DNA of 64,000 nucleotides, from contig OZ024740.1 in assembly GCA_964016885.1 (NCBI GenBank), forward strand, positions 167,772,001-167,836,000, written 5' to 3'. The stretch is from Eledone cirrhosa (lineage: Eukaryota). Below the pieces are notes generated by a model. The model did no database searches. It was given only the letters and a program-made list of their open reading frames with translations, and was not told where the DNA came from. The position numbers and the translations under genes were made by a program. Positions 1-56,789 of the stretch are shown here, piece after piece (within the stretch, counting starts at the first letter, position 1; each line of letters starts with the position of its first letter).

Positions 1-1330
1 TTCTTAGTTGATGACCTGAAGTTGTATGGGCCAAATATCAATGACATCAAGAAACAATTGGACCTCATTACACATTTTCAACAGACATCAAAATGAAATT
101 TGGTGAGTCCAAGTGTGCATATTTGGCAGTAAAACGTGGAAGAGCTGTGCCCTCCTCTAGAAATCTAGACATGAACGGCCTGACAATACAACCTCTACAG
201 TCAGGTGACAACTACACATATCTTGGACAGGATGAGAATGTCAGATATGATGGACCCATAAATAAGGAGAGAACCAGAACTGAATACCTCAGAAGAGTAA
301 AGAAAATATGGTCATCAGAACTTTCAGCGGACAACAAATACATTGCCCACAATACTTATGCTGTGCCAATTCTAACGCCAACATTTGCCCTGCTGAACTG
401 GTCATTGCAAGAACTAAGTGAGATGGATGTTAGAACTCGCAAACTTCTCAGTGTTACTGGGAACTTTAACATAAATGGTGATGTGGATAGGCTATACTTC
501 TCACGCAAGAAAGGTGGCCGGGGTCTAAAATCCATATTAACATCATATGAGACCCGGATAGTAACACTGAAGCAACATCTTCAACAGAGGAAAAAGGTTG
601 GCAACCATCTTGCCCAGGTTTATGAGCATGAAAAAAAAATATCATTAGAATAGTCACTGATCTGGAGGAGAGATATGGAATAAAGCCTGATACAAATCTC
701 TCACCCAGAGAAATCGGAAGATCCTATTCAATGTTCAAACAAGATGAAAAAATTGACCAATTTACAGGAAAAGTTGTGCATGGATACTTGAGACGTAAAA
801 CACAGACCATAGAGGAAATAAACCACTCAAAAAGCCTGGCATGGAGTTCCGACAAGTTTATGACATCACACCTTGAGGGATATCTCTATGCAATACAGGA
901 ACAAGAACTCCCTACCAAATATCTGCTGCACAAAAGGGGAGGGCCATCAGCTGACAATAAATGTAGGCTATGTAAAACAAAGATCGAGGATGTAAGCCAC
1001 ATTGTTGCCAGCTGCGAAAGAATGTCATCTCGCTACTACCTCCCCATGAGACACGATGGTATAGCTAGAACCATCTAGAACGCACATCGGAAAACAAAAT
1101 TAACAACAAACGAGGGAGAATATATTGAGACAGATGGCACTAAGGAATACTGGTGGAACCTGAAAATAAAAACTGCCAACAAAATAATTCATAGTCTACA
1201 AATGGCTGCGATAGCTGGCACCTTCAATATTTGCAAAACATTCTTGCGATTCATGGGATGACAATTTCTTTTCTTTTACAACCTTGCCACCAGGAAGGTG
1301 GCCGGTCAAAAAAATATACTAGAAATTAAG
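1..1330 (+). mobile_element. 3' part of an R4/Dong-like non-LTR retrotransposon (RT C-terminal half, CCHC knuckle, truncated restriction-like endonuclease), disrupted
   Basis: Motifs in order: (F)LVDDLKLY, KFGESKC, YTYLG, RLYFSRKKGGRGL, CRLCKTKIEDVSHIVASC, RHDGIA, LQMAAIAGTFNICKTFL*. Frameshifts and stops near 90, 653 and 1078. Confidence 0.85.
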
Positions 1331-28762: not shown

Positions 28763-29184
28763 CTACATTTTAAATTTATATTTATATTTAAAAGTTGAGC
28801 AACTGAATAAATTTGTCCGTAAATTAAGGGAATTTTTAGATTTGAGTATAAAGAATATCTCCTCCGCGCAGAGGTCACATGTCTCAGAGGATGAATTAAA
28901 AGGAATCCCTCTTGAGACTATATTCCAAGCCGTCGAATATCCAACGTTATCATGCTTAAGTTGCCAGAGTAAGCCTGATAGTGATGTTGAAGATTTTTTG
29001 CTTGGATCTGTGAAAGAATTCTTGTGGTTATTATAGCGAAGTTTAAATTCTGTCGAGGTGGAACCAACATAGTTAAAAGAATTTAAGTCCGTTTTAACAT
29101 TACAGTTGTACATTATATTTTTAACTAAGCAATTGTTATTTAACGGACATTTAGATCTATCTCTACAGTTACATTTGTTTACTT
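28763..29184 (-). pseudogene. Penelope-like GIY-YIG endonuclease domain (N-terminally truncated)
   Basis: CNCRDRSKCPLNNNCLVKNIMY...NYVGSTSTEFKLRYNNHKNSF...CDLCAEE..ILK...LNLRT, the typical PLE linker plus GIY-YIG. Confidence 0.9.
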
Positions 29185-48005: not shown

Positions 48006-48032
<27 letters not shown>

Positions 48033-48044
<12 letters not shown>

Positions 48045-51000
48045 GATCGAGTATCGAAAAATCGGCGCACGAGTTAACGAAAAACGAAATCCGATATGAG
48101 CGGCAGAGGGCTCAATAATTCAGATGAATCAGAGCTATAACTATCGTTAAAATACCGTCACATATAGAACAAGTCTACAATCAACCATACGATTTAAAAT
48201 CGATAAAGGAAGATTCGGGCCAAACAGATAAAAAATATCAATAAAACAATACGTCAATAATTTAAATGAATGTAAAATCATACCCGGACCCACTAGAAAG
48301 GTGTTAAATCTAGCTTCATGGGTTTCTGTAAATCCTTAGACAGTACTCTATCAGCTCACATATAAATATAAAAGCCTACTAGAATAAGTGGAATGGAGTT
48401 TACGTTGTCAACGAGTTTTATCCTGGCGGCAAAGGAGTCAACTAGCGGTGAAAAACGCACATGGCATTAGATAGGGGAGATGACCCCTATATCCGCGAAA
48501 ATAATTCGAGTGAATGTGGAAATACACATATCGAATTAGAGTGCTCAATAGACATGTTAAAATAAAACAAAAGCTATTCATCACTCAATAGAATCGACAA
48601 AATATGAGCAATAAAATTAACTGGTGGATAGCTATGTCCAGAGCTAAATATATTAGAAAGATCGAGTATCGAAAAATCGGCGCACGAGTTAACGAAAAAC
48701 GAAATCCGATATGAGCGGCAGAGGGCTCAATAATTCAGATGAATCAGAGCTATAACTATCGTTAAAATACCGTCACATATAGAACAAGTCTACAATCAAC
48801 CATACGATTTAAAATCGATAAAGGAAGATTCGGGCCAAACAGATAAAAAATATCAATAAAACAATACGTCAATAATTTAAATGAATGTAAAATCATACCC
48901 GGACCCACTAGAAAGGTGTTAAATCTAGCTTCATGGGTTTCTGTAAATCCTTAGACAGTACTCTATCAGCTCACATATAAATATAAAAGCCTACTAGAAT
49001 AAGTGGAATGGAGTTTACGTTGTCAACGAGTTTTATCCTGGCGGCAAAGGAGTCAACTAGCGGTGAAAAACGCACATGGCATTAGATAGGGGAGATGACC
49101 CCTATATCCGCGAAAATAATTCGAGTGAATGTGGAAATACACATATCGAATTAGAGTGCTCAATAGACATGTTAAAATAAAACAAAAGCTATTCATCACT
49201 CAATAGAATCGACAAAATATGAGCAATAAAATTAACTGGTGGATAGCTATGTCCAGAGCTAAATATATTAGAAAGATCGAGTATCGAAAAATCGGCGCAC
49301 GAGTTAACGAAAAACGAAATCCGATATGAGCGGCAGAGGGCTCAATAATTCAGATGAATCAGAGCTATAACTATCGTTAAAATACCGTCACATATAGAAC
49401 AAGTCTACAATCAACCATACGATTTAAAATCGATAAAGGAAGATTCGGGCCAAACAGATAAAAAATATCAATAAAACAATACGTCAATAATTTAAATGAA
49501 TGTAAAATCATACCCGGACCCACTAGAAAGGTGTTAAATCTAGCTTCATGGGTTTCTGTAAATCCTTAGACAGTACTCTATCAGCTCACATATAAATATA
49601 AAAGCCTACTAGAATAAGTGGAATGGAGTTTACGTTGTCAACGAGTTTTATCCTGGCGGCAAAGGAGTCAACTAGCGGTGAAAAACGCACATGGCATTAG
49701 ATAGGGGAGATGACCCCTATATCCGCGAAAATAATTCGAGTGAATGTGGAAATACACATATCGAATTAGAGTGCTCAATAGACATGTTAAAATAAAACAA
49801 AAGCTATTCATCACTCAATAGAATCGACAAAATATGAGCAATAAAATTAACTGGTGGATAGCTATGTCCAGAGCTAAATATATTAGAAAGATCGAGTATC
49901 GAAAAATCGGCGCACGAGTTAACGAAAAACGAAATCCGATATGAGCGGCAGAGGGCTCAATAATTCAGATGAATCAGAGCTATAACTATCGTTAAAATAC
50001 CGTCACATATAGAACAAGTCTACAATCAACCATACGATTTAAAATCGATAAAGGAAGATTCGGGCCAAACAGATAAAAAATATCAATAAAACAATACGTC
50101 AATAATTTAAATGAATGTAAAATCATACCCGGACCCACTAGAAAGGTGTTAAATCTAGCTTCATGGGTTTTTGTAAATCCTTAGACAGTACTCTATCAGC
50201 TCACATATAAATATAAAAGCCTACTAGAATAAGTGGAATGGAGTTTACGTTGTCAACGAGTTTTATCCTGGCGGCAAAGGAGTCAACTAGCGGTGAAAAA
50301 CGCACATGGCATTAGATAGGGGAGATGACCCCTATATCCGCGAAAATAATTCGAGTGAATGTGGAAATACACATATCGAATTAGAGTGCTCAATAGACAT
50401 GTTAAAATAAAACAAAAGCTATTCATCACTCAATAGAATCGACAAAATATGAGCAATAAAATTAACTGGTGGATAGCTATGTCCAGAGCTAAATATATTA
50501 GAAAGATCGAGTATCGAAAAATCGGCGCACGAGTTAACGAAAAACGAAATCCGATATGAGCGGCAGAGGGCTCAATAATTCAGATGAATCAGAGCTATAA
50601 CTATCGTTAAAATACCGTCACATATAGAACAAGTCTACAATCAACCATACGATTTAAAATCGATAAAGGAAGATTCGGGCCAAACAGATAAAAAATATCA
50701 ATAAAACAATACGTCAATAATTTAAATGAATGTAAAATCATACCCGGACCCACTAGAAAGGTGTTAAATCTAGCTTCATGGGTTTCTGTAAATCCTTAGA
50801 CAGTACTCTATCAGCTCACATATAAATATAAAAGCCTACTAGAATAAGTGGAATGGAGTTTACGTTGTCAACGAGTTTTATCCTGGCGGCAAAGGAGTCA
50901 ACTAGCGGTGAAAAACGCACATGGCATTAGATAGGGGAGATGACCCCTATATCCGCGAAAATAATTCGAGTGAATGTGGAAATACACATATCGAATTAGA

Positions 51001-54000
51001 GTGCTCAATAGACATGTTAAAATAAAACAAAAGCTATTCATCACTCAATAGAATCGACAAAATATGAGCAATAAAATTAACTGGTGGATAGCTATGTCCA
51101 GAGCTAAATATATTAGAAAGATCGAGTATCGAAAAATCGGCGCACGAGTTAACGAAAAACGAAATCCGATATGAGCGGCAGAGGGCTCAATAATTCAGAT
51201 GAATCAGAGCTATAACTATCGTTAAAATACCGTCACATATAGAACAAGTCTACAATCAACCATACGATTTAAAATCGATAAAGGAAGATTCGGGCCAAAC
51301 AGATAAAAAATATCAATAAAACAATACGTCAATAATTTAAATGAATGTAAAATCATACCCGGACCCACTAGAAAGGTGTTAAATCTAGCTTCATGGGTTT
51401 CTGTAAATCCTTAGACAGTACTCTATCAGCTCACATATAAATATAAAAGCCTACTAGAATAAGTGGAATGGAGTTTACGTTGTCAACGAGTTTTATCCTG
51501 GCGGCAAAGGAGTCAACTAGCGGTGAAAAACGCACATGGCATTAGATAGGGGAGATGACCCCTATATCCGCGAAAATAATTCGAGTGAATGTGGAAATAC
51601 ACATATCGAATTAGAGTGCTCAATAGACATGTTAAAATAAAACAAAAGCTATTCATCACTCAATAGAATCGACAAAATATGAGCAATAAAATTAACTGGT
51701 GGATAGCTATGTCCAGAGCTAAATATATTAGAAAGATCGAGTATCGAAAAATCGGCGCACGAGTTAACGAAAAACGAAATCCGATATGAGCGGCAGAGGG
51801 CTCAATAATTCAGATGAATCAGAGCTATAACTATCGTTAAAATACCGTCACATATAGAACAAGTCTACAATCAACCATACGATTTAAAATCGATAAAGGA
51901 AGATTCGGGCCAAACAGATAAAAAATATCAATAAAACAATACGTCAATAATTTAAATGAATGTAAAATCATACCCGGACCCACTAGAAAGGTGTTAAATC
52001 TAGCTTCATGGGTTTCTGTAAATCCTTAGACAGTACTCTATCAGCTCACATATAAATATAAAAGCCTACTAGAATAAGTGGAATGGAGTTTACGTTGTCA
52101 ACGAGTTTTATCCTGGCGGCAAAGGAGTCAACTAGCGGTGAAAAACGCACATGGCATTAGATAGGGGAGATGACCCCTATATCCGCGAAAATAATTCGAG
52201 TGAATGTGGAAATACACATATCGAATTAGAGTGCTCAATAGACATGTTAAAATAAAACAAAAGCTATTCATCACTCAATAGAATCGACAAAATATGAGCA
52301 ATAAAATTAACTGGTGGATAGCTATGTCCAGAGCTAAATATATTAGAAAGATCGAGTATCGAAAAATCGGCGCACGAGTTAACGAAAAACGAAATCCGAT
52401 ATGAGCGGCAGAGGGCTCAATAATTCAGATGAATCAGAGCTATAACTATCGTTAAAATACCGTCACATATAGAACAAGTCTACAATCAACCATACGATTT
52501 AAAATCGATAAAGGAAGATTCGGGCCAAACAGATAAAAAATATCAATAAAACAATACGTCAATAATTTAAATGAATGTAAAATCATACCCGGACCCACTA
52601 GAAAGGTGTTAAATCTAGCTTCATGGGTTTCTGTAAATCCTTAGACAGTACTCTATCAGCTCACATATAAATATAAAAGCCTACTAGAATAAGTGGAATG
52701 GAGTTTACGTTGTCAACGAGTTTTATCCTGGCGGCAAAGGAGTCAACTAGCGGTGAAAAACGCACATGGCATTAGATAGGGGAGATGACCCCTATATCCG
52801 CGAAAATAATTCGAGTGAATGTGGAAATACACATATCGAATTAGAGTGCTCAATAGACATGTTAAAATAAAACAAAAGCTATTCATCACTCAATAGAATC
52901 GACAAAATATGAGCAATAAAATTAACTGGTGGATAGCTATGTCCAGAGCTAAATATATTAGAAAGATCGAGTATCGAAAAATCGGCGCACGAGTTAACGA
53001 AAAACGAAATCCGATATGAGCGGCAGAGGGCTCAATAATTCAGATGAATCAGAGCTATAACTATCGTTAAAATACCGTCACATATAGAACAAGTCTACAA
53101 TCAACCATACGATTTAAAATCGATAAAGGAAGATTCGGGCCAAACAGATAAAAAATATCAATAAAACAATACGTCAATAATTTAAATGAATGTAAAATCA
53201 TACCCGGACCCACTAGAAAGGTGTTAAATCTAGCTTCATGGGTTTCTGTAAATCCTTAGACAGTACTCTATCAGCTCACATATAAATATAAAAGCCTACT
53301 AGAATAAGTGGAATGGAGTTTACGTTGTCAACGAGTTTTATCCTGGCGGCAAAGGAGTCAACTAGCGGTGAAAAACGCACATGGCATTAGATAGGGGAGA
53401 TGACCCCTATATCCGCGAAAATAATTCGAGTGAATGTGGAAATACACATATCGAATTAGAGTGCTCAATAGACATGTTAAAATAAAACAAAAGCTATTCA
53501 TCACTCAATAGAATCGACAAAATATGAGCAATAAAATTAACTGGTGGATAGCTATGTCCAGAGCTAAATATATTAGAAAGATCGAGTATCGAAAAATCGG
53601 CGCACGAGTTAACGAAAAACGAAATCCGATATGAGCGGCAGAGGGCTCAATAATTCAGATGAATCAGAGCTATAACTATCGTTAAAATACCGTCACATAT
53701 AGAACAAGTCTACAATCAACCATACGATTTAAAATCGATAAAGGAAGATTCGGGCCAAACAGATAAAAAATATCAATAAAACAATACGTCAATAATTTAA
53801 ATGAATGTAAAATCATACCCGGACCCACTAGAAAGGTGTTAAATCTAGCTTCATGGGTTTCTGTAAATCCTTAGACAGTACTCTATCAGCTCACATATAA
53901 ATATAAAAGCCTACTAGAATAAGTGGAATGGAGTTTACGTTGTCAACGAGTTTTATCCTGGCGGCAAAGGAGTCAACTAGCGGTGAAAAACGCACATGGC

Positions 54001-54919
54001 ATTAGATAGGGGAGATGACCCCTATATCCGCGAAAATAATTCGAGTGAATGTGGAAATACACATATCGAATTAGAGTGCTCAATAGACATGTTAAAATAA
54101 AACAAAAGCTATTCATCACTCAATAGAATCGACAAAATATGAGCAATAAAATTAACTGGTGGATAGCTATGTCCAGAGCTAAATATATTAGAAAGATCGA
54201 GTATCGAAAAATCGGCGCACGAGTTAACGAAAAACGAAATCCGATATGAGCGGCAGAGGGCTCAATAATTCAGATGAATCAGAGCTATAACTATCGTTAA
54301 AATACCGTCACATATAGAACAAGTCTACAATCAACCATACGATTTAAAATCGATAAAGGAAGATTCGGGCCAAACAGATAAAAAATATCAATAAAACAAT
54401 ACGTCAATAATTTAAATGAATGTAAAATCATACCCGGACCCACTAGAAAGGTGTTAAATCTAGCTTCATGGGTTTCTGTAAATCCTTAGACAGTACTCTA
54501 TCAGCTCACATATAAATATAAAAGCCTACTAGAATAAGTGGAATGGAGTTTACGTTGTCAACGAGTTTTATCCTGGCGGCAAAGGAGTCAACTAGCGGTG
54601 AAAAACGCACATGGCATTAGATAGGGGAGATGACCCCTATATCCGCGAAAATAATTCGAGTGAATGTGGAAATACACATATCGAATTAGAGTGCTCAATA
54701 GACATGTTAAAATAAAACAAAAGCTATTCATCACTCAATAGAATCGACAAAATATGAGCAATAAAATTAACTGGTGGATAGCTATGTCCAGAGCTAAATA
54801 TATTAGAAAGATCGAGTATCGAAAAATCGGCGCACGAGTTAACGAAAAACGAAAACCGATATGAGCGGCAGAGGGCTCAATAATTCAGATGAATCAGAGC
54901 TATAACTATCGTTAAAATA
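48033..54919. repeat. Tandem array, 11.2 copies of a 615-bp unit, flanked by (TA)n
   Basis: GAAAGATCGAG recurs at 48041, 48656, 49271 ... 54806 (step 615). Only two substitutions noticed (50171, 54855). No ORF of 60 aa or more. Confidence 0.98.
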
Positions 54920-54959
54920 TATATATATATTCCAACTCGTGTGTTCCTTCTCCACATTT

Positions 54960-55018
<59 letters not shown>

Positions 55019-55948: not shown

Positions 55949-56016
<68 letters not shown>

Positions 56017-56036
56017 CAACAGCAGCAGGAGCAGCG

Positions 56037-56100
<64 letters not shown>

Positions 56101-56136
56101 CAACAGCAGCACCAGCAGCACCAATAGTAGTAGTAA

Positions 56137-56201
<65 letters not shown>

Positions 56202-56254
56202 ATAGCAGCAGCAGCAGTAGAAGTAGTAGCAGTAGTAGTAGTAGTAGTAGTAGT

Positions 56255-56334
<80 letters not shown>

Positions 56335-56354
56335 CAGCAGCAGCAGCAGTAGAT

Positions 56355-56408
<54 letters not shown>

Positions 56409-56506
56409 ATAGCAGCAGCAGCAGTAGAAGTAGTAGTAGCAGCAGCAGTAGTAGTAGTAGTAGTAGTAGTAGTAGGAGAAGCAGTAGTATTAGGAGGAGG
56501 AGGAGG

Positions 56507-56559
<53 letters not shown>

Positions 56560-56575
56560 CAACAGCAGCAGGAGT

Positions 56576-56607
<32 letters not shown>

Positions 56608-56619
56608 TAGTAGTAGTAA

Positions 56620-56672
<53 letters not shown>

Positions 56673-56737
56673 ATAGTAGTAGTAGTAGTAGTAGTAATAG
56701 TAGTAGTAGTAACAGCAGCAGGAGTAGCAGCAGCAGC

Positions 56738-56789
<52 letters not shown>

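Follow-up and report, generated by a model that had tools for sequence, protein, structure and literature searches.

Near-identity among the units of a tandem array raises the question of whether the array was inserted as such, by repeated copying of one template, or was expanded and homogenised in place, and, in the former case, what kind of molecule was copied. The question is posed here by a 615-bp repeat in Eledone cirrhosa. The stretch of DNA analysed (the window) comprises 64,000 nucleotides of assembly GCA_964016885.1 (contig OZ024740.1, positions 167,772,001 to 167,836,000, forward strand), and coordinates refer to this window. A first-pass annotation, made from the letters alone, had read the repeat as a candidate hammerhead retrozyme that arose in a single recent insertion, from repeated copying around a 615-nt circle. 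A single recent insertion by repeated copying of one 615-nt template is supported by the present analysis, whereas the hammerhead, and with it the retrozyme assignment, is not. The repeat belongs to a mobile family that is young, dispersed, non-coding and devoid of a hammerhead, and it represents one of its insertions.

The Array and Its Unit

The array has a period of 615 bp, 11.20 units and exactly two single-unit substitutions, as had been described (Table 1). Its start lies within (TA)n at 48010-48038 and its 3′ side carries a short TA run and later (TA)27, in agreement with the reported ends in (TA)n; no target duplication is discernible at the right flank (54920-55016). The absence of an ORF was likewise borne out, the longest stop-free stretch in the six frames of a unit dimer being 62 codons, and so was the enrichment in CpG (observed/expected 1.32 in the unit vs. 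0.88 in the left 10 kb and 0.70 in the right flank). All of the hairpin arms that had been named are present, but the perfect ATAGGGG..CCCCTAT hairpin is specific to the window array, since the other arrays of the family have two G.U wobbles on the minus strand at this site. What had been taken for a terminal redundancy of about 120 bp is the twelfth unit, cut short after 122 bp: the end phases of other arrays number 63, and the redundancy is therefore a truncation and not a terminal repeat. The array is missed by Tandem Repeats Finder, whose period limit is 500.

Two short motifs of the unit, a TATA-like stretch on the plus strand (48358-48372), absent from the third family described below, and a CATGTG/CACGTG hexamer (48458-48463), common to all three families, are possible candidates for a promoter or dimerisation signal. 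Elsewhere in the window, a broken C-terminal region of a non-LTR retrotransposon with a zf-RVT match occupies 45-1078 (+), and an (AGT)n-type trinucleotide tract of 840 bp occupies 55949-56788.

Table 1. Features of the window that bear on the 615-bp array (for the array, + is the presumed first-made strand and - the presumed template)
Feature	Position	Strand	Remarks
Fragment (endonuclease-like end) of a young resident Penelope-like element	28763..29182	-	Candidate helper family, outside the array
(TA)n target tract	48010..48038	.	Runs into the start of the unit; ATATAT microhomology is the putative priming site
Tandem array	48033..54919	+	11.20 copies of a non-coding 615-bp unit
Fixed start common to the family	48033..48056	+	Exact (TA)n-start junction occurs 742 times in the assembly; reversed control 0
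Conserved multi-hairpin domain adjoining the fixed end	48092..48167	-	All three families; putative enzyme-binding element
Phase 111, minor second start of the family	48143..48152	+	12 places in the assembly vs. 742; unused as a start in the window array
Conserved stem with internal loop	48280..48332	-	All three families; may serve in processing or bind a protein
Double change, phases 440 and 442	48472..48474	+	All 11 units of the window array
Long-range helix	48543..48644	-	48636-48644 with 48543-48553; 7/8 pairs changed on both sides between families
Single-unit substitution C>T	50171..50171	+	Unit 4
Truncated twelfth unit	54798..54919	+	Variable end of the array, 122 bp long; contains 54855 T>A
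Right flank	54920..55016	.	Short TA run, about 32 unrelated bases, (TA)27 at 54963-55016

A Dispersed Family with a Fixed Start and a Variable End

Exact matches of the 615-bp family were counted over the 3.0-Gb assembly. The junction of (TA)n with the start of the unit occurs 742 times, which corresponds to at least 742 insertions, and the internal junction between units 1,426 times; the reversed control gave 0 for both. A variant motif tags 3,644 units belonging to other subfamilies. Two further families have the same layout: a second one with a 608-bp unit, about 80% identical and also young (1,678 first-look candidates, 40 scored), and a more distant third one with a unit of about 610 bp (4,825 first-look candidates, 40 scored), whose copies (L224, L241, L245, L220, L331-L338) are mostly short and combine the fixed start with the conserved fold. 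Dispersed copies of differing unit number, the existence of which had been put forward as a check, are thus found in abundance. Differing start phases had been expected too; instead, the starts are fixed and the ends vary.

Whole-unit similarity was used to choose 23 arrays; phase 1, in TA, is the start of 22 of them, and the remaining one abuts an N gap. All 121 of the second family among the matches listed begin at position 1 or 2, and 69 of 71 third-family matches begin at position 1. The variable end was described from 79 loci taken in order from the first 100 listed junctions, leaving out 5 already sampled and the last 16. They range from under 0.1 to 26.6 units per insertion (33 below 1 unit, 20 with 1-2, 16 with 2-5 and 10 with at least 5) and end at 63 distinct phases. 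TA is found at the variable end in 52 of them, while stops at the unit end (2/79) are not above those at other TA-like sites (phases 107 and 242, 5 each). Inverted arms were present in none of the 79. The one two-armed copy among the 23 similarity-picked loci, L038, consists of a phase-1 arm joined to an inverted phase-111 arm. The two start sites of the family are 110 nt apart, and all three of the phase-111 starts that were fetched run on in tandem.

The unit was also recovered in independent sequencing runs, with 5 differences in 564 bases and 9 in 645. Near-identical units (48033-48647) occur in runs X1, X2, X5, X6 and X8, which carry several organism codes and represent either separate species or mixed samples; they are not taken as a sign of horizontal transfer. 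A related unit that skips 136 bases was seen in one run. In one run guessed to be RNA, a single 144-base exact piece of the unit was found together with low-complexity matches. A literature search outside most subscription journals and Repbase yielded neither a published account of the 615-bp family nor a genomic study of lesion signatures read lap by lap.

Evidence for One Template per Array

Throughout the assembly, exact matches of the double change at phases 440 and 442 number 11, every one inside the window array, and the change turns two minus-strand G.U wobbles into Watson-Crick pairs, by which the hairpin is perfected. Array-wide haplotypes of this kind number 32 in 52 arrays of at least three units each. 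One of these arrays, L182, was kept out of the variant counts as a mosaic; the other 51 hold 64 single-unit substitutions in 246,477 bases, and a single one of these changes recurs in two arrays, out of register. On the plus strand, A>G occurs 18 times and T>C never (P 3e-4), and the bias of the remaining strand pairs is not significant in the same 51 arrays. In 24 young arrays the single-unit rate is 1.35e-4 (21 in 155,328 bases), which falls within the range of 5.7e-5 to 2.2e-4 errors given in the accessible text of PMC11331410 for three reverse transcriptases on RNA circles. According to the same text, the group II intron enzyme has an A>G-rich error spectrum, which the bias matches, while L1 and R2 favour thymine substitution in the cDNA; because these two favour the opposite change, the bias is evidence of one-stranded, unrepaired copying, but its A>G direction does not tell the first-made strand from the second. 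The array data resemble Roll-Seq, in which variants of all repeats are ascribed to the template and variants of one repeat to the enzyme, at a similar rate; Roll-Seq differs in being an in vitro concatemer method, with spectra that vary by enzyme (PMC11331410, as far as accessible).

A further class of variation consists of 11 sites, each of which changes state more than once within a single array. Starting at the fixed end, one such mixed site gives T G A A and another C C C C A C C C A A C A A. At a third site, nineteen T come before A T A A A A T A (a switch after lap 19), and a fourth, with gaps, runs T, gap, A, gap, A, A. One site, at which the family has T, never shows this base and reads A A G G. 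At 4 of the 11 sites there are at least two derived states. Among the 10 sites of substitution type, unit 1 has the family base at 8, and a minus-strand purine lies opposite 9 (P 0.002), the base inserted opposite the putative lesions being mostly A. Such sites may represent a damaged or modified template base that was misread lap after lap, and their pattern points to a template on the minus strand and to synthesis from the fixed end. Conversion that spread a single mutation cannot account for a site at which two derived bases occur and the ancestral base is missing.

That the units of an array were made by repeated copying of a single template is, on this evidence, very likely. Under the contrary view, inserted monomers or copies of multimeric transcripts were expanded or homogenised later by unequal crossing-over or gene conversion, crossing-over being the route proposed for vertebrate retrozyme arrays (accessible text of bioRxiv 10.64898/2026.07.22.740005). 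It is also in keeping with L182 (with L222; G000:C1:81720000-81739800), a second-family array of at least 32 units and a mosaic with 51 recurrent sites, which reflects either later recombination or mixed templates, a satellite at a later stage. For young arrays, in-place expansion or homogenisation is already largely refuted, and the whole scenario is very unlikely: a single-unit change neither spreads to adjacent units nor recurs in register elsewhere, a site with two different derived bases, in one case with no ancestral base left, would have to be hit repeatedly, and neither strand-biased errors nor the geometry of fixed start and random end is expected from it. Unequal crossing-over, which the annotation had listed among its alternatives, is disfavoured on the same grounds of single-unit changes, strand bias and geometry. 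Its two other alternatives, homogenisation by the assembler and a tandem TRIM-like element, fare no better. No contig of the sequencing runs examined spans the array, so that near-identity of the assembler's making could be suspected, and a 122-bp terminal repeat would suit a TRIM. Yet the arrays retain distinct private haplotypes and biased single changes, the unit is present in independent runs, and the end phases (63 in 79 loci) leave no fixed terminal direct repeat, which renders both ideas extremely improbable.

Search for a Ribozyme and Class Membership

One hammerhead-like motif per unit had been claimed, but CTGANGA is absent from both strands of the unit. A descriptor of the hammerhead core plus stem II, which matched a Penelope-like hammerhead as positive control, matched none of 20 aligned units on either strand; with one mismatch allowed, it matched 3 of the 20 unit rows, on the plus strand only and without conservation. 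The nearest look-alike, CAGATGA at 48121 (+), inside the 48092..48167 domain, fails the core. Rfam gave nothing at gathering score in the whole window, and in two units searched with E up to 10 it gave only a chance bacterial sRNA at E 8.5. The catalytic cores of the Rfam ribozymes (HDV-like, twister, hairpin, pistol and others) were not found in two units, nor did our own HDV-like descriptor, which had no positive control, match any of 20 unit rows.

Several other candidates were rejected. For a tRNA-derived SINE, ARAGORN gave 0 genes and Rfam none, hence no tRNA-like head. Look-alikes of the hairpin ribozyme, twister and a CRESS origin within the unit were dropped on inspection by eye, and inspection of the same kind revealed no conserved AG/GT of adjoining splice sites in the unit.

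Since neither a hammerhead nor an Rfam match is present, the family is not a retrozyme as defined. It does consist of non-coding dispersed tandem repeats, as retrozymes do, and it has the fixed 3′ end, variable 5′ truncation, partial tandems and microsatellite target of Penelope-like elements.

Candidate Helpers

A resident Penelope-like family with a C-terminal endonuclease is young and abundant (57,742 first-look candidates, 150 scored). It has frames of about 750 aa, a 3.9-kb monomer, intact copies and a type I hammerhead, and the named relatives of its protein come from Argonauta hians. Of 29 loci, 28 terminate next to TA at one or other of two fixed sites, which are separated by 94 nt, the opposite end of the element being truncated. 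Inverted arms occur in 17 of the 29 (12 of 24 without five loci that were chosen as inverted pairs) against 0 of 79 in the 615-bp family (P 2e-9). Three full-length Penelope-like copies stand in tandem with a 4,011-bp period (L272-L274). Apart from a 45-base low-complexity match, the unit has no homology to the Penelope-like loci, and no 3′-end similarity to an autonomous Penelope-like partner was found in the one resident lineage sampled (101,009 first-look candidates overall).

Helitron coding regions with long open frames are present in the genome. The unit shares no sequence with 28 Helitron stretches, only 4 elements of which had about 8 kb on each side; a short fragment of the 615-bp family lies in the flank of one stretch. 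A non-autonomous Helitron was rejected as the identity of the unit: it does not start with TC, its CTAA forms part of one arm of a 5-bp hairpin, and a terminator-like stop is seen in 2/79. Helitron-domain matches recur every 100-150 kb or so on one strand (G000 C20, C27, C19 and C16), which suggests very large tandem segmental repeats. The matches of an RTE-like query are old, broken copies only. When a covariance model of the fixed-end domain was run on 68 Penelope-like, Helitron and RTE-like loci, its sole match was a member of the 615-bp family. Given an RNA template, the case for a Penelope-type helper is evenly balanced.

Nature of the Template and Proposed Mechanism

The minus-strand elements conserved among the families are listed in Table 1. 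The fitted structure beats shuffled and slid controls, although it was itself derived from the 12 related rows in question. Folds of single units have z of -4.35, -1.68 and -5.80 on the minus strand vs. -0.73, -1.69 and -1.86 on the plus strand; the alignment fold exceeds shuffles on both strands (plus z -7.9, minus z -4.1), and the strand-neutral G.U count is 9 vs. 5, both results being neutral or adverse to an RNA template. Array-wide private changes comprise T>C 6 vs. A>G 7, compared with 0 vs. 18 among single-unit changes (P 0.002). The six array-wide T>C are A>G on the minus strand, all after U (P about 0.006), and two of them come from one older array. An A after U is the context of A-to-I editing, and these changes provide an editing-like hint of an RNA template. 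The covarying fold fits RNA as well, and we regard it as fairly likely that the template was RNA.

A unit-length DNA circle, copied by rolling-circle synthesis from a TA break in a Helitron-like process or by repair on an excised circle, would account equally for the polarity, the private variants and the lesion read-outs, and it suits the one-armed geometry. The insertion of A opposite purines is also compatible with DNA as the template, if it had abasic sites. Moreover, this genome has long-frame Helitron coding regions, and Helitron-derived tandem arrays are on record (accessible text of PMC12001565). We nevertheless consider a DNA circle unlikely, as terminator behaviour is missing (2/79 stops at the unit end), there is no 5′ TC end, and nothing is held in common with the 28 Helitron stretches, 4 elements of which had the wider flanks. 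The twin-primed inverted copy (L038), the second fixed start and the editing-like hint, minus-strand A>G after U, also speak against it, and both the substitution rate and the strand bias are high for proof-read host synthesis. The template may otherwise have been a linear RNA slightly longer than one unit, with the reverse transcriptase jumping back to its own 3′ end at each pass. Neither a ribozyme nor a ligase is needed in that case, in keeping with the lack of a recognised cleavage motif, the same array-wide variants and lesion read-outs are predicted, and concatemeric cDNA is known to be made from a non-coding RNA by bacterial DRT2 (PMC12039810). Since register is kept for up to 26 laps and young arrays are of a single haplotype, the jumps would have to be exact and never intermolecular, which makes such a linear template quite improbable.

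The explanation that we favour, as a probable one, is that one 615-nt template was copied round and round from TA, likely a circular minus-strand RNA copied by a borrowed target-priming reverse transcriptase. Both the RNA nature and the circularity of the template are what we infer from the arrays. Arrays would be transcribed on the minus strand and cut to unit-length, probably circular RNA. A helper endonuclease would nick (TA)n, after which the DNA 3′ end could pair with the internal AUAUAU of the unit, and the reverse transcriptase would make the plus strand for under 0.1 to 27 laps, until it falls off. The cDNA would then be joined to the other target end, often via TA microhomology; rarely, that other end may prime at phase 111 and give rise to an inverted second arm.

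Relation to Known Systems

The family resembles the non-LTR retrozymes of metazoans in its non-coding dispersed tandem repeats, low GC and range from dimers to long multimers, and its unit length lies inside their reported 51-972 bp (accessible text of PMC7229834 and bioRxiv 10.64898/2026.07.22.740005). Non-LTR retrozymes are, however, defined by a type I hammerhead (PMC7229834, same proviso), which the 615-bp family does not have. Primed reverse transcription of circular RNA into tandem cDNA was proposed for retrozymes by Cervera and de la Pena (2020; PMC7229834, accessible text), whereas Li, Clavereau and Pollet (2026; bioRxiv 10.64898/2026.07.22.740005, accessible text) favour later crossing-over, with which the young arrays described here do not fit. 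In the accessible portions of both papers the tandem-cDNA step is proposed without being shown; here, the within-array variation probably records it. The supplements of Li et al. (bioRxiv 10.64898/2026.07.22.740005) could list hammerhead-free relatives.

Non-autonomous Penelope-like elements such as Chlamys MRC1, and the Naiad and Hydra clades, are similar in their head-to-tail multicopy organisation, truncation at one end, (TA)n target and occasional inverted copy; Naiads and most Chlamys also do without canonical hammerheads (accessible text of PMC8557442). They differ in that no autonomous 3′-end partner was found for the 615-bp family, in which inverted arms are rare, and the Naiads of cephalopods, according to Craig et al. 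2021 (PMC8557442, accessible text), lost their activity long ago. A resemblance also exists to the non-autonomous Penelope-like elements in the accessible text of PMC3846280. The resident Penelope-like family is alike in being young, in its TA target, fixed 3′ ends, partial tandems and two starts (94 vs. 110 nt apart), but it has a hammerhead, often uses both starts and is two-armed in at least half of its loci, and it has no sequence or fold in common with the 615-bp unit. Helitron-derived tandem arrays, for which Xiong et al. 2016 is cited in the accessible text of PMC12001565, are similar as tandem copies of rolling-circle origin; unlike them, the family has no Helitron termini, no terminator stops and no homology to the resident stretches tested.

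Implications

Whether tandem non-coding retroelements and satellites originate by rolling-circle copying at insertion or by later crossing-over has, in the accessible portions of PMC7229834 and bioRxiv 10.64898/2026.07.22.740005, been proposed rather than demonstrated. Variation within young arrays makes it possible to tell template variants from copying errors, and it reveals single template positions that were misread in more than one way on different laps, a pattern hard to obtain by recombination. Since dispersal takes place without a hammerhead, the family either has no need of the ribozyme or has some other motif for processing. A construct of 615 nt makes both template copying and hammerhead-free processing testable at the bench. 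It is a speculative idea, and an improbable one, that the conserved covarying fold contains an undescribed self-cleaving or self-circularising RNA motif, which would make the family a second class of animal circular-RNA retroelement with its own helper. If this were true, thousands of arrays would constitute an in vivo, lap-by-lap record of rolling-circle reverse transcription, in which editing and chemical damage on single RNA molecules would be logged.
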